64,000 bases of DNA from Patescibacteria group bacterium (GCA_023379265.1 JAMCUI010000004.1:73273-137272), one strand, 5' to 3'; shown: positions 23,071 to 44,935, counted from the stretch's first letter. A program made the numbers and translations. Notes: generated by a model from the sequence alone, not told the origin.

Positions 23071-23071
23071 T

Positions 23072-29572: not shown

Positions 29573-32056
29573 ATGGCCGAAAACAAAGTTGTCCTTGAGC
29601 TTCGCACGCCAAAAACGGCTGAGGAAACACCAGGCTCTATGGAGCAGGTCTTTGCCGCGCTTTTTTCAGGCGGTCATATCCCCCACTGGAAAAGGCTCTG
29701 GATAAAGGTGCGCACTCTTTCTTTTGAAATCGCGAGCTTTAACCAGACCATCCATTTTTACTCGGTAGTACCGGAATCTTTCAGGACGTTTATCGAAAGC
29801 CAGCTGACCAGCCAATACCCCAAAATACTTATAACAAAAGTACCCGATTATATCGGCGAAATTACCAGGTCCCCGTTTCTTGCTGTAGGCAACCTGCAGC
29901 TGGCGCATGCTTTTTACTATCCCATCAAGACTTTTTCCGAGTTCAAAGAACTGGATCCTATGTCCTCAATCATCGGTGTCTTGTCCAAACTCTCACCTTT
30001 GCAAAAAGCCCTCATCCAGATAGTGATTGAGCCTCCGCACTTTAACTGGCAGGGAATGGTGACAAGGATGATTGAGCGCGGCATTCCTGACCCCACCCCA
30101 ACCGCTCCTGATAAAACCAAATCCTTCCCGCACGCGTCAATTATCGAGACCAAACTGAAAAATACCGGATACCGCACTTATATCAGGCTACTCGTAGGAG
30201 GAGAGACTGACAAGGAGGCCAAAAGTCTCATGTTCAACCTGGCCGGTTCCTTTGGCGCCTTTGCCCTGGGAGAAGGCAACCGGATAATTCTCAGGCGCCC
30301 ACGGCTGTTCTTTAAGAAAGTCATATTTAACCGCATCATAAAGCGCGAAAAAAGCCACTTTCCCCGTCACCAAATCTTTAATACCGCAGAACTGGCTACC
30401 ATCTTCCATCCGCCCACCATGCTTTTGGCAGGCATAAAAAATATCGCCTGGGGCAGATCTCTTGTCGGTGAGCCTCCGCAAAATCTGCCCGTTGCCCTGG
30501 GTGCCACAGAGGAACAAAAAAGCCAAATCAACTTCTTTGCCAAAGCAGAGTTTAAGAACTCCCTTACTACATTTGGTGTGAAGAAAGAAGATAGACGGAA
30601 ACACGTGTATGTCATCGGGAAAACGGGTACCGGGAAATCCACCATGATTGCCAACCTGGCTATAAATGACATGAGAAACCGCGAGGGCCTGGCGGTTGTC
30701 GACCCCCACGGCGATCTGTCTGAAATACTCCTTCACTATGTTCCCTCATACAGAATAAACGATGTAGTTTATCTGGAACCGTTTAATCAAGACCGTCCCT
30801 TCTGGATAAATCCGCTGGAAGTCAAAAATCCGGTCCACCGAGAACTGGTTGCATCCGGCATCGTCTCTATTTTCTCCAAATTATACGCTTACTCATGGGG
30901 ACCGAGGCTGGAGTATATTCTGAGAAATGTCATCCTCACGCTTCTGGAATATCCAAATGCCACCCTCACTATGGCCCTGGACCTTCTGGCCGACCAGAAC
31001 TTCCGACAGGGAGTCCTACTAAAGGTCCAGGATAGAGTACTCCAAAACTTCTGGCATAACGAATTTGACAAGATGCACCCCAGGCTAAAAAGCGAAGCAA
31101 TTGCGCCTATCCAAAACAAAGTCGGCCAGTTTGTCCAGTCCCCGACTATCAGACAGATCATAGGCCATTCCTCCTCAACTATTGATCTTGAAGACATCAT
31201 GAACCAGGGAAAAATACTGATACTAAATCTCGCCCAGGGGAAACTCGGCGAGGACAATGCTGCGCTTCTGGGGGCAATGTTTATCACCAAGATGCAGCTT
31301 GCGGCCATGAACCGGGTAAACATGCCTGAAGCCGAAAGGAAGGATTTTTACCTTTACGTGGACGAGTTCCAGAATTTTGCTACTTCATCTTTTATAAAAA
31401 TACTTTCCGAAGCCAGAAAATACAGACTGGACCTTATCCTGGCCAACCAGTATATAGGCCAGCTTGAAGAGACAGTGCAAAAAGCCATTTTCGGCAATGC
31501 CGGCACACTCATTTCCTTTGTTATTGGAGCCCAGGATGCCGCGGCAATAAGTAAGGAATTCGGCCAGTGGTATAAAGAGGAAGATTTAGTTAACTTAGGT
31601 TCATACCAGATAGTCATTAAACTTGCTATCGACAACCTCACTTCACTTCCCTTCCATGCCGTCACACTCCCCTTACCCAAAAGTGTCAATCAAAATAGAG
31701 ATAAGGTAGTCAGATTGTCGCTTGAAAGATACACGAAAAACGCGGATCCAACGCTTAGCGCGCTTAGGCAAACCCCTGCTTCCGCGGTACTTCCCAAACC
31801 GCAAACAGCCAGTTTTACCCAGACTCCTTCCCAACAAGCTCCTCCTGTCAAAAATACTCCAGAGACAAGTACTTCCACTAGTCTTCCCCAAGAGACAACG
31901 AGTACTTCCGCCAAGATATCTCGTCTTCCCCATCCGCAAACCAAAAAACAGCCAAAACCGGCCAAAGATACACCAAACACTTCACAGCCTGTTAATTCCA
32001 ATCCTACTAACCAATCCAACCAAACCAGCCAGACAAACACAAACCGTTCACAATAA
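29573..32056 (+). CDS. P-loop ATPase of the FtsK/HerA/TraD-VirD4 superfamily (type IV coupling-protein-like) with ~140-aa Pro/Thr/Gln-rich C-terminal tail
   Basis: Walker A VIGKTGTGKST, VVDPHGDL (TraG/VirD4-type motif), Walker B FYLYVDEFQNF; no N-terminal TM helices; GC content visibly above host genes. Confidence 0.5.
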   Translation: MAENKVVLELRTPKTAEETPGSMEQVFAALFSGGHIPHWKRLWIKVRTLSFEIASFNQTIHFYSVVPESFRTFIESQLTSQYPKILITKVPDYIGEITRSPFLAVGNLQLAHAFYYPIKTFSEFKELDPMSSIIGVLSKLSPLQKALIQIVIEPPHFNWQGMVTRMIERGIPDPTPTAPDKTKSFPHASIIETKLKNTGYRTYIRLLVGGETDKEAKSLMFNLAGSFGAFALGEGNRIILRRPRLFFKKVIFNRIIKREKSHFPRHQIFNTAELATIFHPPTMLLAGIKNIAWGRSLVGEPPQNLPVALGATEEQKSQINFFAKAEFKNSLTTFGVKKEDRRKHVYVIGKTGTGKSTMIANLAINDMRNREGLAVVDPHGDLSEILLHYVPSYRINDVVYLEPFNQDRPFWINPLEVKNPVHRELVASGIVSIFSKLYAYSWGPRLEYILRNVILTLLEYPNATLTMALDLLADQNFRQGVLLKVQDRVLQNFWHNEFDKMHPRLKSEAIAPIQNKVGQFVQSPTIRQIIGHSSSTIDLEDIMNQGKILILNLAQGKLGEDNAALLGAMFITKMQLAAMNRVNMPEAERKDFYLYVDEFQNFATSSFIKILSEARKYRLDLILANQYIGQLEETVQKAIFGNAGTLISFVIGAQDAAAISKEFGQWYKEEDLVNLGSYQIVIKLAIDNLTSLPFHAVTLPLPKSVNQNRDKVVRLSLERYTKNADPTLSALRQTPASAVLPKPQTASFTQTPSQQAPPVKNTPETSTSTSLPQETTSTSAKISRLPHPQTKKQPKPAKDTPNTSQPVNSNPTNQSNQTSQTNTNRSQ

Positions 32057-32105
32057 ATACCCAAACAGCTTCAATTGAACAATTTATTTACTCTATGAAA
32101 AATAA

Positions 32106-32351
32106 TTATTGGATTGGAGGTAGATTAAGATGATCTTCTATTCGTTCGTCACGTTTACGAAGATCCAGATATTCGGTATCAAAAAACTCAGCAATTATAC
32201 TAACATCTTTACGTATTTTCGTATTGTCTTTTTTAATTATTTTTACCTCTGAATTCAATACTTGTAAATCCCTCTTGATGGGGTGGAGCTCTTCCTTGAT
32301 AAATTTCATTAAGGAATTTCTTAAAGACAGAATATCAATTTTTGTCAGCAT
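32106..32351 (-). CDS. small coiled-coil protein, paralog of 44546..44809
   Basis: 81 aa; shares MLTK.DL start and DFFD.EYLD.R.R.ERIE.HLNL.P.Q end with the 87-aa paralog. Confidence 0.55.
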   Translation of the reverse strand: MLTKIDILSLRNSLMKFIKEELHPIKRDLQVLNSEVKIIKKDNTKIRKDVSIIAEFFDTEYLDLRKRDERIEDHLNLPPIQ

Positions 32352-32388
32352 ATAACGACATATTAGGCTATGAAATAAATACTGTCAA
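32352..32388 (-). promoter_or_regulatory. sigma70-type promoter TTGACA-17-TAATAT, ending 8 nt before the ATG (leaderless or near-leaderless transcript)
   Basis: Reverse complement of 32360-32365 = TAATAT, of 32383-32388 = TTGACA, spacer 17. Confidence 0.55.
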
Positions 32389-32513
32389 CAACAAACACTC
32401 ATTATAACCCTATAACAAAACTATGACTTTATCATATATTCTACTATTTAATTATGGCTTTATGATATAAATATAAAAAAATCAATACTTTATTACCTCT
32501 TATTTAGTCAAGA

Positions 32514-32542
32514 TTGACAATCCTATAATTTAGTGGTATAGT
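32514..32542 (+). promoter_or_regulatory. sigma70-type promoter TTGACA-17-TATAGT reading rightward into a 640-nt non-coding leader
   Basis: Read directly. Confidence 0.4.
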
Positions 32543-32680
32543 TCGCGTCACGTTTCAGAAAAGCTTATTATTGTAGTATAAAATACAAAATATGCAGACA
32601 TCCGGAAAAATAAAATTTAACTTCCTGTTTTCCATAAAAAGAATTTTTGTCGTTCTTTTTATCTAAGTCAGGGAGTTTTT

Positions 32681-32775
32681 TGTGGCAAAACTAAACTCCC
32701 AAACTGAAGAAAAAGGGAGTTTTTTGTGGCAAAACTAAACTCCCAAACTGAAGAAAAAGGGAGTTTTTTGTGAGA
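32681..32775. repeat. Tandem repeat, ~44-bp unit x ~2.5; each unit contains a hairpin gggagtttt...aaactccc
   Basis: gggagttttttgtggcaaaactaaactcccaaactgaagaaaaa repeated without spacers. Confidence 0.85.
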
Positions 32776-33179
32776 AGTGAAACGACGAATCTGTTTGTGA
32801 AGGACTACCGGCTTTATTAAGATTTTGGTTAAAGGTAAATATTCTGCCCAAGATTTTTTGTCTTGGGTTTTTTTGCACTTTAACAAAAAGTGTCCCGTAT
32901 CTTTTTGTGACGGTTACACAATTTGCGTGTATTTATGTCTAAAAAGAGAGGAACACTTATCTTCCTGTGTTTAGAAAGTAACTTTTCCTCGCTTTGTTTC
33001 CCCGGACGTAACCGGCATTTTGGGCCTATAAATTGATGGACTCAAAATGACGGTTACGTTCATTATCTTTCATCGCAGAAACCAATTCACGCAGTAAAGG
33101 AGGAAAAGCACACAACAATCAAACAATCGTTATCCATCGAGATCGAAAAAATCGTATGTATGCCAAATGGAGGTAAACC

Positions 33180-34007
33180 ATGGCAAAGAAAGAAAAACCC
33201 ACCAACCACACGAAATGGTTCTGGTGGTTCTGGTTCCTGTTCTGCATCGTGGTCCTTGGCGGCATGGGACTCTGGGAGATCGCAAACCTCATCTTTTCGA
33301 AAAACGGCATTCAAGACATAGTGTTTGGAATGTCCGCCAACGACGACTTTGCGAATCTCCTGGGCTGGAGCGGCGCGGTCTTCTTCAGTTTCAACGAATT
33401 CCTGCCGTTCCTGGTCCTACTACTGCCCCCCGTGCGCAAGTACTTTGACAAGTGGTACAAGTGGGCGGCGATCATTGCCCTCTCCATCGTGCTCGGGTGG
33501 ATTCCCGACATCGGCAGCACGTATCTCGACATTTCGAGCCACACCGAGTACTGGAGCACGTTGGGACAGAACAAACTCATGACGACCGAGATGGTGATGG
33601 GGACCAAAATCCTCTTCAGCATCATCCTCGCCAACATGGAGCCGCTCATCGGCTTGAACATGATCCTCATCTCCGCACTATGGGAGAAGATGCATCATCT
33701 CGACGGCGATACTGTCGAGCCGCTTGAAGAACTCGAAGAGCTGATGCCCATTCTCGCAAAACTCGTCGAGGACGAGGAACTTGACGAAGAAGATGAAACA
33801 TTCATCAAGGGCGTGCTCGGCAAAGGCGAAGACGATGAACTCACAGCCAAAGATTTGAAGAAACTCCCCGGTAAGATCGAGGGCATCGCGGAAGCGGCTG
33901 AAAGCGCCAACGAGGGAGTCGAAAAACTCGTCGAACACCTCAAGGAAAAAGAGGAAGAAGAAGGCGACGAAGAGGACGACGAGGACAACGAAGACGAAGA
34001 GGATTAA
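33180..34007 (+). CDS. hypothetical multi-TM membrane protein with poly-acidic C-terminal tail
   Basis: Strong SD GGAGGT; hydrophobic segments; C-terminus EEEGDEEDDEDNEDEED; GC-rich. Confidence 0.5.
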   Translation: MAKKEKPTNHTKWFWWFWFLFCIVVLGGMGLWEIANLIFSKNGIQDIVFGMSANDDFANLLGWSGAVFFSFNEFLPFLVLLLPPVRKYFDKWYKWAAIIALSIVLGWIPDIGSTYLDISSHTEYWSTLGQNKLMTTEMVMGTKILFSIILANMEPLIGLNMILISALWEKMHHLDGDTVEPLEELEELMPILAKLVEDEELDEEDETFIKGVLGKGEDDELTAKDLKKLPGKIEGIAEAAESANEGVEKLVEHLKEKEEEEGDEEDDEDNEDEED

Positions 34008-34305
34008 CGTCTCTCTCTGCGCCTTTTGGGCGCGTCATGCCAAACACAGGAAGAGCGGGGGGCTGAAGAAAGCTTCAAAGAAGATGCACCGGCACAATAT
34101 GTGCAGGTTTGAACACCGTAACAGGTGCATCTATCTTGATTCTTTTCTCAGTCCCCCGTTTTTCCATTTCAGTATTTGTCCTGGGACAAGATGAATTTTT
34201 CGTTTTTACCGAGGACAAATATGGACAAATCTGTTCTCAATTTTTCTCTGCCAGACAGCCGGTAAAAGCTCCGGTTTTTTCTGGTGGGAAAAAGCTCTTT
34301 AACAG

Positions 34306-34425
34306 TTGAATGATAACGGATAAATGGTTATATGGAGTAGTTCGTATCCTTCAAATTCGTTTGGCGCGAGAGAAAGAGAAGCCAATTTCTGGTTGACTTT
34401 TCTTTTTCTCAAGCGTCAGATGAAA
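34306..34425 (+). promoter_or_regulatory. Repeat family A copy 1: conserved ttgaatgataacgga box, long imperfect hairpin (gcgagagaaagagaag/cttttctttttctcaagcg), conserved cgtcagatgaa, then SD
   Basis: Three copies share identical flanks; see copies at 35160 and 36958. Confidence 0.75.
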
Positions 34426-34451
34426 ATCGCAAAAAGAAAGGAAGGTCTGCC

Positions 34452-34910
34452 ATGTACATTTGCGGATGGGAAGAATTCGGTACACTTCCCTACAAGGACC
34501 AGGCAGAGATATTACGCGTGATAAATCAACAGGAAAGTATAAGTGTCTATGGCGGAATGAATGAGTTTTTCGAACTTGTTGAAAGGCTGATACCACAACA
34601 CCTGGAGTGGGTCGAGACGTATTGCAGCAACGCCCAAACTTTCAACAAAATAAAAAGAAGATACGATCTTGAGGAAATCGAGGCAATGCTGGAAGGATTG
34701 ATCCCTCCCGCAAATCCCGCACTCATGCCACCGCCAAAACCAAAACCCATGCCTGTATATACTCCTGTTGTTAAGAAGAGAGTTCACAAAACTTCCAAAC
34801 CCAGCCGTCATCGGATTCACCGATTGCGAAAGAGCAAAAATCGCAAGAAGAAATCCTGGATAGGAAGGATTGTGGGGAAAGGAAAAAAATTCCTTTCATC
34901 TTTCTTTTGA
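34452..34910 (+). CDS. hypothetical protein with Pro-rich middle and highly basic C-terminus
   Basis: SD AAGGAAGG; intact 152-aa ORF; no recognisable domain. Confidence 0.45.
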   Translation: MYICGWEEFGTLPYKDQAEILRVINQQESISVYGGMNEFFELVERLIPQHLEWVETYCSNAQTFNKIKRRYDLEEIEAMLEGLIPPANPALMPPPKPKPMPVYTPVVKKRVHKTSKPSRHRIHRLRKSKNRKKKSWIGRIVGKGKKFLSSFF

Positions 34911-35025
34911 AAACCGTTATCGTTCCCAGCTTGCATATTGGGTTTCTGCCCGAAGAGGGTGCTGGACGCCTGGTCCATCACAAAAATTCAAACCCTCTAA
35001 ATTGCACGTCTTGTCCTTAAATTTT

Positions 35026-35150
35026 TTGAGGACTGGACCTGACAGACAACATCTGTTGTCTGGAAATGATTATGGACTATATTTTTGAAATAAGTTCTTC
35101 AATATAGCCTCACAAATTGCGTGGGGTTTATTTTGATGGAATTTATCGCT
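35026..35150 (+). repeat. Repeat family B/C copy 1: gaggactggacc, hairpin cagacaacatctgttgtctg, gattatgga, then G/C hairpin + T-run
   Basis: Aligns with 36841-36957 and 39455-39590. Confidence 0.7.
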
Positions 35151-35159
35151 CTTTAACAG

Positions 35160-35263
35160 TTGAATGATAACGGAAATTATTCTCCTTCTGTTTCGTCTGG
35201 CGTGAGAGAATCAGTACCTAAACCACTCACTTGGGTTCTGTTTCTCTCAACCGCCAGATGAAG
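35160..35263 (+). promoter_or_regulatory. Repeat family A copy 2
   Basis: ttgaatgataacgga ... gcgtgagagaatcagtaccta / gggttctgtttctctcaaccgccagatgaag. Confidence 0.75.
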
Positions 35264-35394
35264 TAAATCCAAATCAGAAAGGAGATGGTAAAAGCAAAAA
35301 AAACTAATCGGCGCAAGAGAATGTACTGTAGTATCCGGAAGACAAAACCAAAAACCAACATGTTTTCCGGTATCTCTGATCGGAGGAAAAGATC

Positions 35395-36141
35395 ATGAAA
35401 GTGAAAGTATTTCTTGCAACGCAACTTGACGCCTCGCAAAGAAAAGCATTGTACGACGCGGTAGTCAAGTTCGCAAAGGACTTGGATCTCGAATCGTTCG
35501 AGGACATGTCCAAGTTCCATGAGTACATGGGCAATGCCGTTGACGACAAGATCGCAGGCGCTGTCAAAGGGACAATCACCACGGTCAAGAAATTGGAACT
35601 CTTGGTTGAAGCCGCAGAAGATAACTGGCAGCCGGAAGAGAAAACCGCGCCCGAAAAGCAGGAACCCAAATCGTCCGCGTCACCCACGCGCACAGCGGCA
35701 AAAGACCGCGCGGGGCGGCAACGGCGGATCGTGTTTCTCGTCGCAGCGGCGGCGGTCGTCCTGGTCGTCGTCTGCATCGGCATTGTCTTCTCGGGAGTTC
35801 TCGGTGGCGGAACCAGCAGCGCGACCAGCACGCTCACGCCAGCCGCACTCACGCCAATGTCAAACGCAGCGCCGAAAACTCCGGCTTCCAGCGGCTTGAA
35901 AATTCAGTCGGCACCAACCCCTCGCGGATTCTGCGAGCCGGGCACCAAAGTGCCGGCGGGACTGCCGCTCTACCGGATCACTTCGCCGGTAAACTCTGCC
36001 GTTCCCACGTGGGGCTTGACCGGCGGAAAAACCACCGACAACCAGACTTTCACAACCGGTTGGCAATCGGCTGAAAACGGCACAGTACGCATGTGCGCCG
36101 TGTCCAACAGCCCGTACGCAGTCCGTATTCCGGTGAAATAG
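35395..36141 (+). CDS. hypothetical protein with central TM helix and Ser/Thr/Pro-rich extracellular region
   Basis: SD GGAGG; TM segment IVFLVAAAAVVLVVVCIGIVF; GC-rich. Confidence 0.45.
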   Translation: MKVKVFLATQLDASQRKALYDAVVKFAKDLDLESFEDMSKFHEYMGNAVDDKIAGAVKGTITTVKKLELLVEAAEDNWQPEEKTAPEKQEPKSSASPTRTAAKDRAGRQRRIVFLVAAAAVVLVVVCIGIVFSGVLGGGTSSATSTLTPAALTPMSNAAPKTPASSGLKIQSAPTPRGFCEPGTKVPAGLPLYRITSPVNSAVPTWGLTGGKTTDNQTFTTGWQSAENGTVRMCAVSNSPYAVRIPVK

Positions 36142-36150
36142 GAGAAGAAC

Positions 36151-36588
36151 ATGACAACGCAAATCTTGCGAAAGAGAAAGACGTGGCTCGATGGGCACCC
36201 GCGCGCAAAGGCGTTCTGGCAACAAGTCCAACGCCACTGGCGGGTCGGCTCAAGCATCTTTGCTCTGGCGATCATCGCGTGGATTGGTGTCATGTACATC
36301 GCGGTTCCCATGGCTCACTTTGCGACGATCAGCGTGCCCAACCCCAACGACACCGCGTGTTCACTCGGAAACACCACGAACTCTGTGGTGTTCATGAAAT
36401 TTACTCCGAGCGGTACATTGCGTATCCACGGTAAGGTCGGCGCGAACCGTCTGGACTGGAACGAACCATTAGCACCCCTTGGCTATACTTGGACTAGCAA
36501 CAACATCCTGCCATGGGTCGGCTATTGGGAGCCGAACACCATCAAACCATGCACTGAAGCGCAAACTGCAATGACCGGCGGGCACTAG
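36151..36588 (+). CDS. hypothetical membrane-anchored protein
   Basis: SD AGGAG 10 nt after previous stop (operon with 35395 gene); TM helix SSIFALAIIAWIGVMYIAV. Confidence 0.45.
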   Translation: MTTQILRKRKTWLDGHPRAKAFWQQVQRHWRVGSSIFALAIIAWIGVMYIAVPMAHFATISVPNPNDTACSLGNTTNSVVFMKFTPSGTLRIHGKVGANRLDWNEPLAPLGYTWTSNNILPWVGYWEPNTIKPCTEAQTAMTGGH

Positions 36589-36840
36589 CCGCCAAAAGTG
36601 TATGCCGCGAGCAACTCGCCCGGGGCATACATTTGGACTCATCTTTCCGTTATTCTATCAACGATGTAGGGGTCTTGCGGATTTCCGCAGGGAAACAAAG
36701 ACAGAGAGACAAAAGAGGATATCATACTTTTTTGTTGGATCCGGTGTCTACACTGGATATCAACCACCCTCTTTACTTTTCTGTCTCCCCTAATTTCCAA
36801 GGAGATAAAAAGGTTTTGTCTTTTTGGATGTTCAGATAAT

Positions 36841-36957
36841 TGGACTTTTTCAAATTGTCTGAAAAAAAGATTATGGAATTTATGAAAGTATACTGTTCCA
36901 CGAGTTAACCCCTTTATGCGGGGTTATTTCTAGTGGGATGGATATGCACCTTAAAAA
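36841..36957 (+). repeat. Repeat family B/C copy 2 (5' part truncated)
   Basis: ttgtctgaaaaaaagattatggaatttatgaa ... aaccccttt atgcggggttatttct ... tgcaccttaaaaa. Confidence 0.7.
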
Positions 36958-37095
36958 TTGAATGATAACGGAATAATCACCTTCCCTTTCACTTTCATTT
37001 GGCGCGAGAGAACCAGCACCTAATTTCATTCGTGATACTAAATACGTAATACGTAATACAAATTTAGGTTCTGGTTTTCTCAAGCGTCAGATGAA
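36958..37095 (+). promoter_or_regulatory. Repeat family A copy 3 (17-bp stem gagagaaccagcaccta / taggttctggttttctc with 45-nt loop)
   Basis: Read directly. Confidence 0.75.
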
Positions 37096-37132
37096 AAAAC
37101 CAAAATCAAATATACGAAAGGAAGGTGCAATC

Positions 37133-39313
37133 ATGACAAAGTTAGAATTGCTAAAGTACCTCCGAAGAACAAACAGGTCACGGAAGTTTTACGAATTACT
37201 CACTAAATACCAAAACAATCTGTTTTTCAGGTTGAGAGGATTTAGTAGTGATTCGTTTCGACTCTACCTGAAGTTTGTCGGAGAGGCAAATTTAGCAAGA
37301 ACCATCGGAGACGTCAACACGACTTCACTCCGCCGCGTCTATCGCGTCCTCAAGAAAAGGTACGGGGATGAGGATGAATTGGAAGAGGATGATGGTCTAA
37401 CCATCAATATGAGTAAAGTACTTACAGTCGCGATTCTGATCGTGATTGGACTCGTAGTTCTGATGGGTCTCCCGGCGATTGGGGAAATCTCTTCCCAACT
37501 CGGGATACAGCTGGAGAAGGTGGCTGCGTCGATACCAACAACTCAACCGCAACCGCCAACCCTGGCACCAACACCCATCCCTCCCACCAAAGCTCCCCCT
37601 CTTCCCCCGCCCCCGACAGCGACACCTCAACCGCCTCCTCCGACGGTTGTAGTGGAGATGACAGCAACAGAAGCAGCTCCAGCCACTGACTGCGGCAATG
37701 AACTTTCAGCACAGGAATGTCAGAGGCTGCATGGTATGGTGGCTGCATACGGGAAGAAATGGACAGATGGGGATCCTAGTACCGGCTTGCCGCTTGGGCC
37801 GATGATGGTGGACAGGTATCTGCACGTGTGGAACCGGGATTGGACAGCTACGCAACAGGGGTTTAACGACATCCTGGGTCCACAAGGTGGGAACAGTACA
37901 CAAGCCACCAGTTCGGCAAGTTCTCCGGCGAAAAAATCGACACCGTATCCTACCATCGGCTACATTCAACCGATGACAATCACGGTGCAGGACAATAGCG
38001 GTCCGGCAGAAAATCCGACTCCCACAGCAACTCCATCTCCGCAAGCACAAGGAGGATGCAAGTCTGACGACTGGGGTTGTCAGTTCGGGAACTGGCTGCA
38101 AAGCCAATTTACGCCGATGACGTCGACACCCCAGGCACAGACGCAAACTAGCGGAAGTTGGTGCGTGAAGAAAGTGGATTGGAACGCCATGCAGGCGTGG
38201 TACTCCCACGGTACGGGAGACTTCACCGCAAATCTGCGTGACGTGAACCAGGGAGTGCTTCTGGACCGGGGTTTCAGCTGGACTGGTTTATATTGGAAAC
38301 CGGTCAATCTGTGCGGTAACGCCCAGATTATCGGCAACCCGCCGGCAAACCAATCGCAGGGGCCGCAAGCGCAAACACAACCCACACAGAGAACTCCGCT
38401 ACCCGGGTGGATGGCAAGCGCAGGAAGCTGGGGCTGTTGGGCATCTCCTTGGGGTGTAAGTCTGGATGCACAGATAGTAGATGGGTATTGGACCAATGAC
38501 GGTTACGTACTCATTTACTCACCACAGCGGGGCAAGAACGAGGTGGAAAAGGATCCCAACAAGATCCGGCAAGGAAAATGTCCGCCTACGCCAACGCCCA
38601 TGCCCACCAGTACGCCGCTTCCCCAACCGACTGCTCCACCACAGCGGATCGGGATCTACTGCATTTCAAGTGCAAGCGCCACAGGAGCAAGCGTCATGCT
38701 GACGCCAAACTCAGGCACAGGCGTAAACGTGACGCAGCAATTCCCGGTATACGAGGGATTCCGCTGGAACGGCCGATACCAGGAACCGGATGGCAGCAAA
38801 CCGATGTGCAACAGCTTGCCACAGTTTGCGCCGCCGGCACCTACCCAGATGACGGCACCGTTGCCCTCACCAACAGCATCCGTCTGCGTCCAATCAGTAT
38901 CGGACACGACATTGTATCTTCTCTGGAACAGCAGCCACGTCACTAAAAGCGTGACTGATGCTTCCGCAGGGCTGAGCCCTTACGGATTCAGCTGGACAAA
39001 CGGCAGATGGGTGACAAACACAAACGTCAAATACTGTGCCGGACCTCCCGGACCAACTACTGCTCCAACAGTCAGCGGTCCGCCCGGACCTACTGCAGTA
39101 CCAGCGCCTGTAAGGACTGCGTGTTTCCTTAAAGTTGACGGACAGAACATCTATATGCGGACTTTCGTCAACGGGATTCAATCCCCGCATGGTGATGTAT
39201 CCGTCAACCGGTACACGCAATCAGCCCAGATGGACTCGTACGGTTTTCAATGGAATGTCCCATGGTGGGGCGATCCTGCGTACGACCAGGGCACAGTACC
39301 TTCATGTAACTAA
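37133..39313 (+). CDS. large secreted/anchored hypothetical protein: N-terminal TM/signal anchor, Pro-rich linkers, Trp- and Cys-rich repeats
   Basis: SD AAGGAAGG before ATG 37133 (ORF track start 37091 lies inside the conserved leader); PQPPTLAPTPIPPTKAPPLPPPPT linker; many W/C residues. Confidence 0.5.
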   Translation: MTKLELLKYLRRTNRSRKFYELLTKYQNNLFFRLRGFSSDSFRLYLKFVGEANLARTIGDVNTTSLRRVYRVLKKRYGDEDELEEDDGLTINMSKVLTVAILIVIGLVVLMGLPAIGEISSQLGIQLEKVAASIPTTQPQPPTLAPTPIPPTKAPPLPPPPTATPQPPPPTVVVEMTATEAAPATDCGNELSAQECQRLHGMVAAYGKKWTDGDPSTGLPLGPMMVDRYLHVWNRDWTATQQGFNDILGPQGGNSTQATSSASSPAKKSTPYPTIGYIQPMTITVQDNSGPAENPTPTATPSPQAQGGCKSDDWGCQFGNWLQSQFTPMTSTPQAQTQTSGSWCVKKVDWNAMQAWYSHGTGDFTANLRDVNQGVLLDRGFSWTGLYWKPVNLCGNAQIIGNPPANQSQGPQAQTQPTQRTPLPGWMASAGSWGCWASPWGVSLDAQIVDGYWTNDGYVLIYSPQRGKNEVEKDPNKIRQGKCPPTPTPMPTSTPLPQPTAPPQRIGIYCISSASATGASVMLTPNSGTGVNVTQQFPVYEGFRWNGRYQEPDGSKPMCNSLPQFAPPAPTQMTAPLPSPTASVCVQSVSDTTLYLLWNSSHVTKSVTDASAGLSPYGFSWTNGRWVTNTNVKYCAGPPGPTTAPTVSGPPGPTAVPAPVRTACFLKVDGQNIYMRTFVNGIQSPHGDVSVNRYTQSAQMDSYGFQWNVPWWGDPAYDQGTVPSCN

Positions 39314-39454
39314 TCAGAATGATGAAGCTCTGAACTCCGTTGTCATTCCCAGCCATAGTGGGAGCAGTTTTTATACTCTCCCGACAGGGGGGCTGGATGT
39401 TCTCATCCGTCAAACCCAAAATACCCCTAAATGCTCGTTTGGTCCCCAAAAGTA

Positions 39455-39590
39455 TTTGAGGACTGGACCAGGCAGACAAAGAAATTTGTCTGCAAAAAAG
39501 ATTATGGAACTTATGAAGAAATTCTGTTTCACTATTTAGCCCCTTATTGCGGGGTTGTTTCTGGTGGAATAGAAATTGCACCTTAAAAAG
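39455..39590 (+). repeat. Repeat family B/C copy 3 (perfect hairpin cagacaaagaaatttgtctg; ccccttattgcggggttgtttct; gcaccttaaaaa)
   Basis: Read directly. Confidence 0.7.
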
Positions 39591-39799
39591 TTCATCCATT
39601 CAAGAAAAAAGGACAGGTTGATTATAAAAAGTCAGCTGCCGCATGGAGGGTATAAAGTTTTGTATCTTCCAAACGGCAGCTGAATGAACAAATCGTATCG
39701 TAAACCAACAAATTCAACTCATAAAGGAGGTAAACGCGACAAGTTCAAAATCAGGAAATCCGTAATCAACCATGTTCAATCTCAAAACTGGAGGACAGT

Positions 39800-40708
39800 A
39801 TGTCGAAACGAAACGTTCGCAAACTGACGATCGTCGACGCAATTCTCTTGCTGACGGTTGTCCTTGTTCTTGCGGCCTGTGGGTCTCCGCCGCCCCCCAC
39901 TGCCACGCCGCAAAACCCCATCCTGAAGATTGTCACTGAAGCCATCAAAATTGACAATACCTCTTCAGATGTGGTGCTGGCTGATCTGTATCAGGCGCCG
40001 CTCAAAGACGTCCTGGACCTGTCAAACGTGCTTCCGCAATACAGCACGCAGTTTGACGCGCAGGCAAAGCAAACGCCACAGTCGCAGCAACAGGACCAGG
40101 CAATCCAGGCGGCAAAAGATCAGCAAAAGCAAACGCTTGACTATCTGAACAGTTGCTACATCGGCATGGTCAAGTTTCGGCGGTATCGAGCCGATGGCAA
40201 AACGGCTTTGACCGACGGGCACAGCATCCCGGCGTCCGGAAAGTACAAGGTCTTTTGTCCGACGGAACAAGATCGGCAGGCAGGAATGGCTCCCAACCAG
40301 CTTGCGCTCATCATGAGTGTCTGGTGGAATAAGTCCATGTCGGCGTGGTACTACTCGCCGCATGGCATCAGACCTGCGTACTTCGGCGTGCAGTTGGGAA
40401 CGGTTGAAACCGACCCCACCTTCAATCCCAACCAAGCGCCTCCGGCAAACCTCGGTACCCAATGGTGGGTGGGCACCGACTGTAACTTTCTCGATCTGGG
40501 CAGCAATCAAAGGATGCCGTGCAGCACCGACTGGGTACAACAGGGGATGAGCGTGGCATACGCCGCCAATCCGACACCGGGTGTCGTGGGCGTGCAAGCC
40601 CATATCCTGGTGCTCGCAAACGGCAAGAGCGGCATCCGCTACGTCTCGGCAGCAAGCATGGGCGACAACAGCCCAATGCCGCCGATTACGGGTAACGTCG
40701 AAAAGTAG
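39800..40708 (+). CDS. hypothetical lipoprotein
   Basis: Signal peptide + lipobox LVLAAC; SD GGAGG; GC-rich. Confidence 0.55.
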   Translation: MSKRNVRKLTIVDAILLLTVVLVLAACGSPPPPTATPQNPILKIVTEAIKIDNTSSDVVLADLYQAPLKDVLDLSNVLPQYSTQFDAQAKQTPQSQQQDQAIQAAKDQQKQTLDYLNSCYIGMVKFRRYRADGKTALTDGHSIPASGKYKVFCPTEQDRQAGMAPNQLALIMSVWWNKSMSAWYYSPHGIRPAYFGVQLGTVETDPTFNPNQAPPANLGTQWWVGTDCNFLDLGSNQRMPCSTDWVQQGMSVAYAANPTPGVVGVQAHILVLANGKSGIRYVSAASMGDNSPMPPITGNVEK

Positions 40709-40737
40709 AGATTTCTGACAAACAAGGAGGAAAAACC

Positions 40738-41181
40738 ATGCCAGACAAAAACAGCAAGCGCAAAAACAAAAAGCGCTTACAACCACCGCAGGAAGTTGAT
40801 TGGACTAAGGTCGCGCTGGACGGCGTCGGCATCGTGATCATCGCGGTCTTCATGATACTAGGAATGCAGGATTTGGCTGCGATGCTCATCTGGGGATTTG
40901 CCGGATACTTGCTTGCGCGAAGCGACAGACGCAACAAACTGGTATCGGGAATCGTGGGATTTGCCGTCGCGTGTGTGATCTTTGCGATTGATCCCATCAT
41001 CCCCCTCCAGACCTGGACGGTACGATTTATAGAGTTCGCCCAGTGCGTCGCGCTACCGCTTCTGATCGCCGCCTTCATCTGGCTCACTCTGTCAGTCTGG
41101 AAAGTCGTGGCGCAAAAGGTCAAAACCCTCATCAATCAACTCAACGAAGCGACGCGAGAGAAGACACCGCCCCAGGCGTAA
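40738..41181 (+). CDS. hypothetical small membrane protein (3-4 TM)
   Basis: SD AAGGAGG 30 nt after previous stop (operon). Confidence 0.45.
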   Translation: MPDKNSKRKNKKRLQPPQEVDWTKVALDGVGIVIIAVFMILGMQDLAAMLIWGFAGYLLARSDRRNKLVSGIVGFAVACVIFAIDPIIPLQTWTVRFIEFAQCVALPLLIAAFIWLTLSVWKVVAQKVKTLINQLNEATREKTPPQA

Positions 41182-41201
41182 AATCTCGAATGGAATGAAC
41201 T

Positions 41202-41279
41202 ATCGGGGACACTGCCACGTTTGGCAGGACTGTGACGCTTCATGCGTCCTCTCTTTGCCAAACGTGTCCCCCCGATTTT
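41202..41279 (+). terminator. Long imperfect hairpin (atcggggacac...gtgtccccccgat with nested acgtttggca/tgccaaacgt) followed by TTTT
   Basis: Read directly. Confidence 0.55.
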
Positions 41280-41535
41280 CCAGCTTTGAAAGAAATTTCA
41301 GAGCTGAGAATACGGTCTTTGCACCTTAAAATATGAAAGAAATCAAAATTACGCAGCGGGAATACCCGAGGGTGCGGCGTGGAAGATTAATATTGTCGAC
41401 AAAAACAATATCCGTTTTCCGCGTCGCGCCGTCGGGGAAAATCAAAAGTATGTCATCAGGAGGTGAAACAGAAAAACGAACACTCTATCGATTCAACCAA
41501 GTACATGAGATCAATCGAAAGGAGAATCTACGAAA

Positions 41536-42435
41536 ATGAGTAGACGAAGCAGAAAAAGCGGCGGTAGCATCTTCACTATCCGCAATGCCATTGCCGTCGC
41601 AATCGTGCTGGTCGTCGTGTTCATGCTCTTTGGGGCGGGTCAAGCCTTCACGATGGCTCTCCTCCACAACGCGACGAACCAGTCAGTCGGTGCCAGCACC
41701 ACCAAGGGCGAAATTGGACCTGCTCCTACGCAGACACCACTGAATCCGGTCACGCAAGCACAAAGGTCAATCGGCGAACTGCCGGGTCAGGTGATCCAGA
41801 AGGTCACTGCCAGACCTACGGCGACACCTATGGTCAAAGCCGATCCGTACGCGTACTTCCAATCTGTCGCGGACGACGACTTTACCATTTTGACTGTGGC
41901 GGCGAAAATGGAGCCGTGCGATCCCAATCACCCTGAGAACGGTGGTTTTACAGTCATCGCCACGCGCAACCAAGGCGGTTTAGACGGTGCGTTAAACGGC
42001 AGAACCTACACGCTGAAAGTCTGGGGCGTCGTACGCGCCGGTGTGGACATGAAGGGATTTAATTTATCAAACATCGAGCTGGTTGGCGACCACCTCGTCA
42101 TTCATGTCCCCAAAGGACACTTGGAGCAGCCGACATACTATCAGGATTGCACCTACGAAAAGACGAACAACGGCGCGTTCGTCATGCTGGGAAAGATCTG
42201 GTGGAACCTCACCGACTTGCCCGACATGAACGAAGTAAGTTTGCGGCGCGAGGCAATGAAGAAAGCCGACAACGCCATCGAGAGTGCGGGCTACAACATG
42301 GGACTCGACACGCTTGCCCAGCAGAAGGTGTTTGACCGCATCGTGGACGTTGTCAAAGCAGTGGACGGGGCGGCGCATCGAGAGACCCTCCCGATCATCC
42401 CAGACTACCAGACGAACCAACCCCCGCAGTACTGA
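41536..42435 (+). CDS. hypothetical N-terminally anchored extracytoplasmic protein
   Basis: SD AAGGAG; TM helix AIAVAIVLVVVFMLFGAG after basic N-terminus. Confidence 0.45.
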   Translation: MSRRSRKSGGSIFTIRNAIAVAIVLVVVFMLFGAGQAFTMALLHNATNQSVGASTTKGEIGPAPTQTPLNPVTQAQRSIGELPGQVIQKVTARPTATPMVKADPYAYFQSVADDDFTILTVAAKMEPCDPNHPENGGFTVIATRNQGGLDGALNGRTYTLKVWGVVRAGVDMKGFNLSNIELVGDHLVIHVPKGHLEQPTYYQDCTYEKTNNGAFVMLGKIWWNLTDLPDMNEVSLRREAMKKADNAIESAGYNMGLDTLAQQKVFDRIVDVVKAVDGAAHRETLPIIPDYQTNQPPQY

Positions 42436-42480
42436 CGCGAAACGATCTATGCCAACGAGTTTGTCTCCCCCGACGGCGCG

Positions 42481-42786
42481 ATGGGCATGGAAAGGAAGGT
42501 GATCTTGAAAAAAAGTTTGACAGTGAAGGGACTGTTTGCCGCCATCATACTCCTCCTCTGCGTCGCGTACTTCTTTAGCCCGATCAATTGGGCTGATGAC
42601 GTCATCCCGGTCCTGGGATTTGCGGATGACTTCGTCGACATCGCGATCGCGGTGCTGGATGTGATGTGGTTTTTCGCGCAGGCGAGAAAACTGAGAGAAT
42701 CGGGCGCAAACCCGGTTGCTGCTCTAGAGAGTTCTGCGCGAATTCCGAAGAAAAAACGGAGAAAAAAGACAGTCCATCGCGCGTGA
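42481..42786 (+). CDS. DUF1232 (YkvA-like) small membrane protein
   Basis: ADDVIPVLGFADDFVDIAIAVLD motif characteristic of DUF1232. Confidence 0.55.
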   Translation: MGMERKVILKKSLTVKGLFAAIILLLCVAYFFSPINWADDVIPVLGFADDFVDIAIAVLDVMWFFAQARKLRESGANPVAALESSARIPKKKRRKKTVHRA

Positions 42787-42791
42787 ACGAA

Positions 42792-42820
42792 ATCTTGAAC
42801 CGAACATCTCGGTTCAAGAT
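42792..42820. other. Perfect 12-bp stem hairpin (atcttgaaccga/tcggttcaagat, loop acat) just after the DUF1232 stop
   Basis: Read directly. Confidence 0.7.
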
Positions 42821-43244
42821 GCAATGATTTCTTTCATAAAATCAATAAAACCATGAGCGGATCCTGCGTTAGACAACAGGACCATGGTCTGGGTGGAGAC
42901 GAAGAAGAGATGAAATTTGGCACGCGCGCCAACTCCGAAGCTTTACCGCTTCCTCATCTCCTTTTCCCCCTCCGTTTTACCCAGTTTCCACTCCCTTGGA
43001 TATAATAAATCTATATTACATCCAAAGGAGTGGATTTTTAGAATAGTTCCATTACCCCGGAAGTAAACAAAAATTTAACTCCGGAGGAATGGAACGGTAA
43101 GTTTTTCCATTGCACATTGAAAACTTATGGGGAAAAAATGCAGTGGGGTTATAAGGTTTTAACCAGTTTGGTTACAGCCTTTCATCCCCATTGCATTCAT
43201 CGTGAAATAAAAACCAAAATCATTCGTGTCAAAAAGGAGGAACC

Positions 43245-44252: not shown

Positions 44253-44409
44253 TTTCACCGCACAGGTTTTCGGGGGAGCACCCCAAGTCTCTTGAGGTGC
44301 TCCACCTCACACACTCTCCCCAAAAATCAACCTGCGTCCATCATCCTGGACAGGAATTATCCTGTCCGTGATTTGTGTACGCAGGATGATATTTAAGTTT
44401 CAAACCCGT

Positions 44410-44467
44410 TTGAGGAAATCCGGATTTTTGCATCCGGAATTTCATAGGACGGGTTTTTTAGTTGGAA
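44410..44467 (+). terminator. Stem aaacccgt/acgggttt enclosing inner hairpin tccgga-N8-tccgga, followed by T6
   Basis: Read directly. Confidence 0.5.
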
Positions 44468-44545
44468 AAAAATTTGGGGTTCCATGCTTGGAAAAGGTGA
44501 AGAAAAATGGTTAAATCCTTAGAGCGGGATGTGATTGGTATATAT

Positions 44546-44809: not shown

Positions 44810-44847
44810 ATAACGACAATATTATGATAAGAAAAAATTGCTGTCAA
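44810..44847 (-). promoter_or_regulatory. sigma70-type promoter TTGACA-17-TAATAT, ending 9 nt before ATG; near-identical to the promoter at 32352-32388
   Basis: Reverse complement of 44819-44824 = TAATAT; of 44842-44847 = TTGACA. Confidence 0.55.
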
Positions 44848-44935
44848 TAACAACAGGACTATCTTAGATTTTTTGGGAGAACAAATAAAATTCTTAAATT
44901 GATAAATTATTCCAAAAGGAGCATAATAAGTCACC

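Follow-up and report, generated by a model that had tools for sequence, protein, structure and literature searches.

Within the 64-kb stretch of DNA analyzed here (the window), a strain-variable array of orphan genes adjoins a type IV coupling-protein (T4CP) gene of a Gottesmanbacteria-like (CPR) genome. The repeats between these genes form hairpins at the RNA level, and each of the seven gene units of this island has upstream of it one copy of an 11-base box, box C, which is conserved across alternative islands and relatives and is found there downstream of canonical promoters. The modules may be transcribed punctuation, i.e. a leaky terminator or processing hairpin with a Nus-loading signal of BoxA-like type, after which come hairpins sequestering the Shine-Dalgarno (SD) sequence; we give this reading about an even chance of being right.

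The distribution of the box was analyzed using its core, G-Y-W-C-N-T-T-R-A-M-A (11 bases, seven copies in 64 kb). The pattern GC[AT]C.TT[AG]A[AC]A gave seven matches in the window, all on the plus strand (as are all features described below), all in island spacers and one per unit; it was absent from the rest of the 64-kb window on either strand. The original prediction had recognized the recurrence of the box, including the copy at 41321, and had missed those at 32875 and 43112. Copy 1 (GCACTTTAACA, 32875..32885) lies upstream of the gene at 33180; an identical 12-mer occurs in L010 and a 17-mer, TTTTTGCACTTTAACAA, in sister strain L027. Copies 2 (34294..34320) and 3 (35148..35174) both read GCTCTTTAACA (box C') and, like copy 4 (GCACCTTAAAA, 36946..36972), are followed by the extension TTGAATGATAACGGA, which is invariant in these three places and is included in their coordinates. 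Copy 5 (GCACCTTAAAA, 39578..39588) precedes a different leader, with a hairpin at 39632-39683 whose arms are 25 nt long. Copy 6 (GCACCTTAAAA, 41321-41331) comes after the hairpin CAGCTTTGAAA..TTTCAGAGCTG (41281..41331 with the box), and copy 7 (GCACATTGAAA, 43112-43122) after GTTCCATT..AATGGAAC (43047..43122 with the box). The strong terminator hairpins detected by the terminator scan at 44347..44460, which close the island, have no box 3' of them.

The box resembles BoxA, whose published consensus is GYTCTTTAANA (PMC5725501). This likeness was recognized after the fact, and the consensus was not taken from an rrn leader of this lineage; it is matched exactly by the copies at 34294 and 35148, by that of L027 (13807) and by that of L032. 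When 11 sites from five genomes were aligned, G1, C4, T6, T7, A9 and A11 alone proved invariant, with C2 nearly so, and every one of these columns agrees with the BoxA consensus. The suhB boxA is inactivated by mutating the positions equal to C4 and T6 (PMC5725501), both of which are invariant in the island boxes. The 13-mer TGCTCTTTAACAA of L027 equals the published rrn boxA of E. coli, and GCACCTTAAAAATT has CUUAAAAAUU in common with the boxA-spacer region of lambda nutL. As to context, a hairpin stands directly 5' of the box in every unit, which fits both the rrn order (boxB hairpin, then boxA) and the dsRNA-binding site that adjoins the BoxA site on NusB-NusE. Other features speak against a canonical BoxA. 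The third base is A in most copies (GCAC... and not GCUC...), and the position matching lambda U6 is variable (U, C, A or G). According to structural and genetic work BoxA recognition is base-specific over 8 nt, and the lambda U6G change is inactivating, so that canonical NusB-NusE might not bind such variants. The RNA sequences GCACCUUAAAA and GCUCUUUAACA are candidate NusB-NusE ligands. No Nus, Rho or regulator gene is present in the 64-kb window, and none is required there.

The hairpin 5' of the box is two-tiered in four units: within about 50 nt, an inner GC stem is separated by a U-rich internal loop from an outer stem, of which TTCTGGTGG is the 3' arm. The G/C hairpin described earlier is indeed present, but it is only the inner tier of this structure, and TTCTGGTGG is not uniform across loci as had been thought, its counterparts being TTCTAGTGG (36.9 kb) and TTTTGATGG (35.1 kb). 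The inner stems are GCCGG/CCGG in T1 (34242..34293), which has a U6 run and an outer stem using TTCTGGTGGGAAAAA; CCTCAC/GTGGGG, then TTTATTTTGATGG, in T2 (35091..35145); AACCCC/GGGGTT, then TTATTTCTAGTGGGATGG, in T3 (36892..36942); and GCCCC/GGGGT, then TGTTTCTGGTGGAATAGAAA, in T4 (39523..39573). Family B consists at 35.0 kb (35026..35076) of TTGAGGACTGGACC, itself the 3' arm of a hairpin, a palindromic hairpin CAGACAAC-ATCT-GTTGTCTG (35043-35062) and GATTATGGA, and at 39.5 kb (39456..39508) of TTGAGGACTGGACC, the hairpin GCAGACAAA-GAAA-TTTGTCTGC (39472-39493) and GATTATGGA. The copy at 36.8 kb (36855..36877) is truncated to the right arm TTGTCTG, an A-run and GATTATGGA; TTGAGGACTGGACC with a perfect CAGACAA...TTGTCTG hairpin, claimed for three loci, thus holds for two, the left arm being lost in the third. 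Family A hairpins follow the box. The one at 34356..34424 holds the SD of the gene at 34452 in a CCUUC / GAAGG clamp. At the base of the second (35181..35285, z = -7.9) the anti-SD strand UCUCCUUCUG is paired with CAGAAAGGAGA, an SD preceding a 37-codon basic ORF (35285-35398) that overlaps the start of the gene at 35395. The third (36993-37096) is enclosed in a 12-bp clamp (36981..37127, z = -8.3) between the anti-SD CACCUUCCCUUUC and the SD GAAAGGAAGGUG of the gene at 37133.

These families are combined as a mosaic. The repeat strings originally reported are all present where they had been placed, and a repeat search paired 36852-36945 with 39483-39576 (94 nt, 81% identical) and 35019-35066 with 39449-39496 (48 nt, 77% identical). 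The string AGATTATGGAANTTATGAA is exact at 36868 and 39499 and has, with up to three mismatches, three matches in the window compared to 0.14 expected. BLAST of spacer against spacer linked IG2 to IG4 (B), IG3 to IG4 (B+C) and IG1, IG2 and IG3 to one another (C+A), which bears out the proposed mosaic of A, B and C. The combination at the 35.0 kb locus is corrected to B+C'+A. The IG3 junction between an IG4-like part and an IG1/IG2-like part falls exactly at the 3' end of box copy 4.

Several observations point to a function of the hairpins as RNA, in particular the compensatory changes and the G·U pairs. The T hairpin has 16 consensus pairs, five of them with compensatory double changes, and the A hairpin 29 pairs, four of them compensatory. 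Nearly all hairpins fold much better, with more G·U pairs, on the sense strand: T4 reaches -24.6 kcal/mol on the plus strand vs -9.8 on the minus strand, the corresponding values for the 34.3 kb A hairpin being -35.9 and -19.0. Hairpin z-scores range from -3.4 to -8.3, and each spacer, at only ~40% GC, contains three to five long hairpins and has the stability of coding sequence of 55-60% GC. Such strand-specific and unusually stable structures would also suit RNA processing or stability punctuation that does without Nus, the hairpins being of RNase III type or 3'-protective and the box, single-stranded and AU-rich, a site of endonuclease cleavage or of binding by another RNA-binding protein. 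We hold this to be an improbable reading. The two-tier hairpin with its internal loop resembles the RNase III signals of T7, and the departures of the box from BoxA at contact positions are in its favor. It gives no account, however, of an invariance at exactly the BoxA-consensus positions, nor of the exact rrn-type 13-mer in L027, and the outer stems, of ~10 bp, are short for RNase III.

Promoters were considered relative to the box. The left edge of the locus has a sigma-70 promoter, TTGACA-17-TATAGT with TG (32514..32542, 11/12 match), which is the only strong plus-strand promoter ahead of the island, is kept in L007 and in the sister strains L027, L028 and L030, and ends 332 nt upstream of box copy 1. 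It is followed by a 24-codon leader ORF (MQTSGKIKFNFLFSIKRIFVVLFI, 32592..32666), with a counterpart of 26 aa ending ...GIVILFI in L007; 4 nt separate the stop codon of the window ORF from the first GGGAG arm of a 44-nt tandem repeat (32670..32772). This repeat has 2.3 identical copies, with alternative hairpins possible, either GGGAG..CTCCC or CTCCC..GGGAG then a T-run, and it looks like an attenuator; its copy number is lower in L027 and L007. Directly 5' of the first box the terminator scan found a terminator-like hairpin, T0 (9 bp then T7, 32846..32868), and this region (32812-32887) is matched by the covariance model R1 with E = 0.014. The same layout is seen elsewhere, a 10-12/12 sigma-70 promoter preceding the box by ~60-190 nt in three relatives: L032 has TTGACT-16-TATAAT (11/12), a multi-tier hairpin, GTTCTTTAACA, a leader hairpin, an SD and a start codon; L016 has a 12/12 promoter, a terminator-like hairpin and GTACGTTAACAAGG; L013 has a 10/12 promoter, hairpins and GCACATTAACAAGG. 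In these and in the first unit of the window, the box is thus probably transcribed from upstream promoters, judging from their sequence.

This arrangement bears on the view of the original prediction, in which the modules are terminator-promoters. Spelled out, the T hairpin would stop transcription, the box half TT[AG]A[AC]A (-35) with an AT-rich -10 element 15-18 nt downstream would restart it, and each unit would be its own transcript. The terminator half of this view is supported, since the terminator scan accepts the hairpins with their T-run. Efficient termination there would leave every downstream unit in need of a promoter, and no conserved candidate other than the box is at hand. The invariant T, T, A and A within box positions 6-11 agree with TTGACA, and weak promoter-like sites do occur (TTAACA-16-AATTAT at 35153, CTTAAA-16-AATAAT at 36950, TTAACA-18-AATTAT in L016). 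But the promoter scan found no consistent promoter in the internal spacers of the window, and a tabulation of 13 boxes revealed no -10 element at a conserved distance: five (32875, 39578, 41321, 43112 and L013) are without a usable -10 at 16-18 nt, and the candidates of the remaining ones are out of register. The -35 reading also leaves the conserved G1, C2 and C4 unexplained, places a promoter downstream of near-perfect canonical ones in the four cases above, and predicts a start from which the transcript would lack the anti-SD strand of the covarying clamps (35181-35190 in IG2, 36981-36992 in IG3), while the host has textbook promoters elsewhere, e.g. upstream of rpsB. With the BoxA match added, the claim of one box promoter per cassette is not upheld, and we consider the terminator-promoter reading rather unlikely.

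Comparison of strains indicates what is exchanged at the locus. Up to window position 32825, sister strain L027 shows 99.4% identity; from there it has a wholly different gene set, framed by a B-like palindrome, a two-tier T hairpin, the box and a TGAATGA extension. In all, two other strains, with flanking DNA 99.4% and 96.9% identical, contain unrelated genes at the locus and the same kind of box in their leaders; the full B-T-C order was found again in one of the two, L027. An island-less relative, L007, retains a box at the junction, and its site 13043 shows 21/26 identity to the site of copy 7 (manual count). Three window units have an A-type 5' end and a B+T 3' end in common around unrelated coding sequences, so the earlier idea of portable ends around unrelated cargo is borne out, with the same module order in L027. 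Comparison of the genes 3' of the modules, full-length or N-terminal, revealed no significant similarity; a segmental duplication including the genes, the alternative named at the outset, therefore does not account for the repeats.

Conserved ends around unrelated cargo, the IG3 junction at the end of a box, the replacement of the whole island between nearly identical flanks, the box kept in L007 and the fact that assemblies break at the island borders could suggest that the box or the whole module is a crossover site for the insertion, excision or shuffling of gene cassettes, as in an integron-like array. This is quite unlikely: no integrase or other recombinase gene is present in the 64-kb window, the breakpoint between the window and L027 lies 50 nt upstream of the box and not at it, neither attC-like symmetry nor a GTTRRRY core is present, and no single-cassette gain or loss, as opposed to whole-island replacement, was seen among the strains compared. 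Homologous exchange via conserved flanks, as at capsule loci, would suffice, with no dedicated site. The island does share with integron arrays an order of unrelated genes between structured repeats and a gene content that varies among close strains, but its repeats are leader RNA elements 5' of genes.

Leader-peptide attenuation, in which (A/T)TATGGA opens an 11-14 codon ORF ending at the inner hairpin and translation prevents termination, is very unlikely. All four T-type units share the register of the ATG (MEFMKVYCSTS, MELMKKFCFTI, MDYIFEISSSI and MDKSVLNFSLPDSR) and the stop codon abuts the inner stem in three, but this frame is kept because the copies align without gaps; the ORFs have no SD, unlike every real island gene, which has a strong one, the peptides are unconserved and without common regulatory codons, and the conservation of the region is already explained by its role as 5' arm of the outer stem. 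Selfish miniature repeats (MITE, pneumococcal BOX or Correia type) inserted in spacers, with incidental hairpins, can be set aside as scarcely credible: A, B and C do occur in varied combinations with strongly structured RNA, as in pneumococcal BOX, but they lack terminal inverted repeats and target-site duplications, always stand in one orientation and at one position with respect to the start codon downstream, have no copies off the island in the window nor, except at the same locus, in ~170 kb of related genomes, and gave no match in public viral, genome and metagenome collections or phage and plasmid sets.

Known systems offer partial parallels. The rrn antiterminator and the suhB and CKO_00699 leaders have a comparable 11-nt single-stranded element, exact in some island copies and in agreement at all invariant positions in the others, placed in a transcribed leader downstream of a promoter with a hairpin directly 5', and repeated within the operon, just as boxA recurs in rrn leader and spacer. 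Island boxes differ in that they serve protein-coding orphan genes, seven in 12 kb, each follows a terminator-like hairpin, and the third base is mostly A and the fifth variable; Nus binding would be putative here, in a CPR host whose Nus specificity may differ. In lambda nut, signals stand before terminators needing read-through, long structured leaders control downstream translation, and nutL CGCUCUUAAAAAUU is close to the island GCACCUUAAAAAUU, but the island order of hairpin then box is the reverse of boxA - spacer - boxB, with no N-like protein identified in the island and no conserved boxB-type GNRA-like pentaloop; no other phage-like content was found in the island. The T7 early region has RNase III signals, two-tier internal-loop hairpins between the genes of one long transcript that leave stable ends. 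Island hairpins also lie between consecutive genes, their cleavage being only putative, but have shorter stems, a U-run in the internal loop and a conserved box 3'. The ops/JUMPStart element is likewise a short conserved leader element, heading long, variable and foreign-looking surface-protein operons (RfaH-dependent and horizontally acquired) whose read-through it would ensure; the analogy is functional only, since the sequence differs, the window has no NusG paralogue and the island element is in every spacer. Pneumococcal BOX (boxA-boxB-boxC) also consists of modular short repeat families with stable RNA hairpins between genes, but is dispersed genome-wide in both orientations, whereas the island modules are confined to a single locus, where their order and their orientation to the genes are fixed.

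Three further points weigh against the BoxA-like punctuation. The visible island terminators are intrinsic, yet rrn-type complexes suppress Rho-dependent terminators and not intrinsic ones; the box comes after, not before, the adjacent terminator-like hairpin; and its 3' half, TT[AG]A[AC]A, is also similar to a -35 hexamer. Read as such punctuation, a module would comprise, 5' to 3', optional family B hairpins, an inner GC stem with U-run acting as a leaky intrinsic terminator, the full two-tier stem serving in read-through transcripts as 3'-end stabilizer or processing site, the single-stranded 11-nt box G-Y-W-C-N-U-U-R-A-M-A 0-4 nt further on, and a leader hairpin (family A or other) clamping the SD. 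The nascent box, being of BoxA type, would load NusB-NusE with its partner proteins onto RNA polymerase, as in rrn leaders; binding of Nus factors would, on this view, lead to antitermination rather than to the BoxA-mediated repression described for suhB. The island would be transcribed as one unit: transcription from the canonical promoter at 32514 would pass the leader attenuator, then the structured untranslated spacers and each next terminator, and the Nus complex would be reloaded in each spacer.

The distribution of an 11-nt box (C, with a variant C') was analyzed in the window. The motif GC[AT]C.TT[AG]A[AC]A occurs seven times (32875, 34294, 35148, 36946, 39578, 41321 and 43112), always on the + strand, within the island of strain-variable orphan genes and with a hairpin directly 5' of it, one copy standing ahead of each unit. 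All strings quoted in the original prediction were recovered where it had placed them; its list of box copies lacked those at 32875 and 43112. Three hairpin families accompany the box: A in the leaders, the two-tier terminator-like hairpin T, and B, 5' of T. A repeat search of the window identified a 94-nt pair (36852-36945 and 39483-39576, 81% identical), a 48-nt pair (35019-35066 and 39449-39496, 77% identical) and a C+A block in three copies starting at 34275, 35129 and 36927. AGATTATGGAANTTATGAA is exact at 36868 and 39499, and allowing up to three mismatches gives three matches in the window against 0.14 expected. BLAST of each intergenic spacer (IG0 to IG7) against the others yielded a mosaic: IG2 resembles IG4 in B, IG3 resembles IG4 in B+C, and IG1, IG2 and IG3 resemble one another in C+A; similarity of IG3 to IG5 is confined to the box. 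The proposed mosaic of A, B and C is present, but the locus at 35.0 kb reads B+C'+A; the repeats of the order described for three loci are there, but only two of these loci have TTGAGGACTGGACC and the perfect palindrome.

Copies of the modules on the reverse strand or outside the island were not found in the window, nor in related loci away from this locus, and the modules do not qualify as a MITE or a dispersed intergenic repeat of the BOX, Correia or REP kind, which would be recognised by TIRs or target duplications together with numerous scattered copies in either orientation. Scans of public collections with TTAAMANTTGAATGATAACGG returned chance matches only, within coding sequence or unrelated DNA, and the module strings have no true match in the viral, GTDB-genome and JGI-metagenome collections or in phage and plasmid sets; relatives were found better through contigs sharing conserved neighbouring proteins. 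A duplication covering the genes is excluded because the genes behind the repeated modules show no homology to one another, either in all-against-all BLASTP or in N-terminal Smith-Waterman comparisons with shuffles.

The window is chromosomal DNA of a bacterium of the Candidate Phyla Radiation (CPR), and housekeeping genes (S6, SSB, CysRS, ProRS, RRF, S2, EF-Ts, DnaX) flank the island. It is adjoined by a type IV coupling-protein gene (TrwB/VirD4-like, 29573-32056) whose closest relatives are in Candidatus Gottesmanbacteria MAGs (78-92% identity). Ten + strand genes in seven units encode membrane or secreted proteins, at 50-57% GC versus ~42% for the host, and the only Pfam families are DUF1232 and a weak DUF4230. 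Two island proteins are in NCBI as Patescibacteria hypothetical proteins (M1271_00900 and M1271_00950). The proteins of genes 33180, 37133, 41536 and 43245 matched only themselves among billions of public sequences, bar one marginal match for 41536 (E = 1.2e-05). As to a phage or plasmid origin, there were no meaningful PHROG matches and no BLAST matches in phage or plasmid collections.

Some particular features of the cargo and its surroundings were also recorded. The 726-aa orphan at 37133-39313 contains several Cys-bounded repeats (G-F/Y-x-W-T/N motifs) and Pro/Thr-rich linkers, and the C-terminal part of the 145-aa protein of 36151-36588 resembles one of these repeats (E = 1e-5, island set). 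A very basic ORF of 37 codons with a strong Shine-Dalgarno sequence (SD), MVKAKKTNRRKRMYCSIRKTKPKTNMFSGISDRRKRS, lies at 35285-35398, its stop codon overlapping the start of gene 35395 (ATGA), and an Arg/Lys-rich tail likewise closes the 152-aa product of 34452-34910; by analogy with lambda N protein, both products could bind nucleic acid. Paralogous small genes on the - strand bracket the island (32106-32351 and 44546-44809; 81 and 87 aa, 46% identical, without Pfam family). Their upstream regions are similar, and they have homologues at the same locus in two related contigs, L010 and L007, the second copy being found in run SRR10278331 only. To the right of the island, 45897-51499 holds further orphan genes without Pfam family (635, 215 and 711 aa, 47-50% GC), and the strain from SRR10252151 has the first of them as a variant of 627 aa; an 85-nt repeat links 47889-47973 with 59627-59711.

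Comparison with close strains indicates that the island is strain-specific throughout. Entirely different genes occupy window 32826-44895, positions 13704-17181 of contig L027 (run SRR10267473) and positions 1-3936, reverse strand, of contig L032 (run SRR10252151). L027 is 99.4% identical to window 19080-32825 and then continues into a wholly different island of 53% GC. Among its genes are those for a 104-aa acidic protein, a membrane protein of 269 aa and a Band_7 protein, all unrelated to the genes of the window. In the first leader of L027, TGCTCTTTAACAA, the same sequence as the E. coli rrn boxA, precedes GTTGTTGAATACG, and its last visible spacer keeps the whole order: palindrome CCAAACAAC..GTTGTTTGG, AAAATTATGATTAC, a two-tier hairpin with TTTTTTGCTGTGGAAAAG, the box GCACTTTAACAAG and TGAATGAAG. 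L032 is 96.9% identical to the window from 44896 rightwards and has other genes leftwards; the stretch ahead of one of these runs from TTGACT-16-TATAAT (11/12) through a multi-tier hairpin, GTTCTTTAACA and a long leader hairpin to SD and start codon. In MAG GCA_023487465.1 both flanks are 99.7-99.8% identical, and the contigs stop at 32604 and 45514, the island borders.

More distant Gottesmanbacteria-type genomes have, beside the coupling-protein gene, a promoter, a terminator-like hairpin, a box, a long leader and a GC-rich orphan gene. The box is GCACTTTAACAAGG in L010, where the gene has 55.5% GC in a locus of 39%, GCACATTAACAAGG in L013 and GTACGTTAACAAGG in L016. L007, of 87% identical DNA, is without the island and still has a box behind the leader terminator; since collinearity with the window is lost on its right side, it does not represent a clean empty site. 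Box-like matches in L012 (inside tmRNA) and L008 (upstream of the promoter) were judged to be chance. Several Gottesmanbacteria-type genomes have 32-42% GC overall but 53-65% GC in the orphan genes for secreted or membrane proteins beside the coupling-protein gene, an anomaly that recurs at the same locus with unrelated genes (GC-anomalous regions: L010 13729-14619; L016 6732-9089 and L013 1-300, both - strand; L027 14215-16771). Between the coupling-protein gene and the variable locus of L010, two genes (12260-12874) look by eye like an antitoxin and a PIN-like toxin.

Folding showed the G/C hairpin and its T-run to be just the inner tier of a larger hairpin of ~50 nt: TTCTGGTGG(G/A)A forms the 3' arm of a 10-bp outer stem, opposite a variable 5' arm, and the internal loop holds the U-run. 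Compensatory double changes affect 5 of the 16 consensus pairs. The family A leader hairpin has 29 pairs, 4 of them compensatory, and at its base it continues as a clamp that pairs an anti-SD strand with the SD of the downstream gene and that covaries across copies (CACCUUCC/GGAAGGUG versus UCUCCUU/AAGGAGA); family B consists of two more hairpins and an A-rich single strand. Since the sense strand folds much better, with more G·U pairs, for nearly all hairpins, and since the spacers (~40% GC) are as stable per nt as coding sequence of 55-60% GC, we take the hairpins to be RNA structures. From the four T+box copies a covariance model was built, which in addition picks up 32812-32887 (E = 0.014) and has weak matches in L007, L013 and L027; Rfam gave no family in the window at gathering thresholds, and only chance microRNA-precursor-like hairpins at relaxed E-values. 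A terminator scan found a GC-rich stem-loop followed by a U-tract on the transcribed strand at 32846, 34257, 35106, 36906 and 39537, the U-tracts at 36.9 and 39.5 kb being interrupted. Such sites are no more numerous in the region than in shuffled sequence, so that the terminator argument depends on their position and not on their number.

Other readings were discarded. A long-range helix that would join the nucleotides next to the upstream stop codon, on its 3' side, to those immediately 3' of the box looked attractive in IG2 to IG4 but is no better than in shuffled sequence; pairing of B1 with the box (UUUGAGG/CCUUAAA) is found at 39.5 kb only; and a leader-peptide attenuator at the inner hairpin would have no SD and no conserved peptide. 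Very long imperfect hairpins (arms of 25-42 nt) directly follow stop codons at 34049-34165, 36681-36792, 41205-41272 and 42889-42980, their 3' arms sharing the motif TCCCCC(N)GTTTTTCCA / CCCCTAAAT. SD-like AAAGGAGG or CAGGAGG also occurs within leaders, far from start codons (33097-33110, 39723-39731, 41448-41456), partly sequestered by pyrimidine-rich strands; these may be decoy or standby sites.

The original prediction gave each module its own promoter. The 3' half of the box does resemble a -35 hexamer. A sigma-70 promoter would call for a -35 and a -10 hexamer, spaced 16-18 nt, at a place conserved among the modules; no candidate is homologously placed from spacer to spacer, and internal matches reach 9/12 at most. 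No conserved partner hexamer turns up whether TTGCAC or TTAACA is taken as -35 or the box as -10; a small-RNA promoter in B (TTGTCT-16/17-TATATT) is acceptable in the 35.0 kb copy only, and the GG-N10-GC spacing of a sigma-54 promoter fits the 39.5 kb copy only. The box lies on the sense strand downstream of a canonical promoter in L032 (11/12), L016 (12/12), L013 (10/12) and the first unit of the window (11/12); for the six internal boxes of the window we infer transcription, on the sense strand. Because the box follows canonical promoters wherever these are recognisable, has no conserved -10 partner and, as a -35, would start transcripts deprived of the anti-SD strands of the SD clamps, we read it as a transcribed leader element. 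The modules are probably sense-strand RNA elements in which the box is transcribed and is not a promoter.

Upstream of the island, a conserved canonical promoter precedes a hydrophobic ORF of 24-26 codons ending in (I/V)(V/I)LFI (window 32592-32772, L007 12900-13040, L027 13514-13650). Behind it come alternative GGGAG/CTCCC hairpins with a T-run, arranged in a 44-nt unit of which the window has 2.3 copies and the relatives fewer. This leader looks like a leader-peptide attenuator gating the island.

The resemblance of the box to BoxA was recognised after the fact. The C' form GCTCTTTAACA matches the published consensus GYTCTTTAANA exactly (PMC5725501), and exact matches lie at window 34294 and 35148, L027 13807 and L032 3865-3855; the remaining five window copies depart from it at positions 3 and/or 5, one also at 8. 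In an alignment of 11 sites the flanks do not align, and only G1, C4, T6, T7, A9 and A11 are invariant, C2 being nearly so; every invariant column agrees with the consensus. Mutating C4 and T6 inactivates the suhB boxA (PMC5725501), and the first G, C4 (equivalent to lambda C5) and this T6 are kept in 11 of 11 sites. The genetically critical bases of lambda boxA are G2, C5 and U6, and U6G, like transversions at U6, inactivates it; the equivalent position varies here (U, C, A or G). At the third position of the box, most copies replace the U of BoxA by A. GCACCTTAAAAATT, which is the C form plus its extension, has CUUAAAAAUU in common with the boxA-spacer of lambda nutL. The hairpin directly 5' of the box reproduces the boxB-boxA order of rrn operons and fits the dsRNA-binding site that NusB-NusE has beside its BoxA site.

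The box is probably transcribed and not a promoter, its invariant positions all agree with BoxA, including those needed in suhB, and its 5' hairpin is placed as in rrn; for these reasons we read the module as a leaky terminator or processing hairpin combined with a BoxA-like signal that would load Nus factors. Reloading would take place in each spacer, and the regulated promoter at 32514 would drive the whole island through the leader ORF and the attenuator-like 44-nt repeat. We give this Nus/BoxA mechanism about even chances. Complexes of the rrn type act on Rho-dependent terminators and not on intrinsic ones, and BoxA can also repress a downstream gene, as in suhB.

The idea of cassettes with portable ends holds, since conserved ends surround unrelated cargo both within the island and between strains, but one promoter per cassette is not supported. 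Integron cassettes with attC sites are rejected, as no recombinase domain was found in the ORFs scanned across the 64 kb and the hairpins lack the core sites RYYYAAC ... GTTRRRY. The sole resolved strain breakpoint, at 32825, lies 50 nt upstream of a box, and the strain differences seen involve whole islands only. The economical explanation is exchange by homologous recombination, with conserved flanks and modules as the substrate; we consider a dedicated cassette system improbable. It seems to us unlikely that the locus beside the coupling-protein gene is a recombinase-free CPR exchange site at which GC-rich orphan surface-protein genes are swapped between strains with 99%-identical flanks, the hairpin-BoxA module framing each cassette both as a Nus-type antitermination reload signal, by which one regulated promoter drives any cargo, and as a homology block for shuffling.

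The original observation is confirmed, and the interpretation given with it is partly supported. In our reading, BoxA-type leader signals and terminator hairpins would form a reusable frame for a hypervariable orphan-gene island in a CPR bacterium. Outside ribosomal RNA operons BoxA is known at a handful of sites, among them those of the suhB leader and the nut sites of lambdoid phages; if this reading is true, a BoxA-like box ahead of each of the seven units of a 12-kb protein-coding island would put Nus-type antitermination to a new use. To our knowledge, gene regulation in the Candidate Phyla Radiation is almost unstudied, and the box would be among the first cis-regulatory elements defined there. 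With a type IV coupling-protein gene next to it and its wholesale replacement between near-identical strains, the island is a candidate strain-specific cell-surface or host-interaction locus, and a conserved regulatory frame open to any cargo would account for the expression of such genes once they have arrived.
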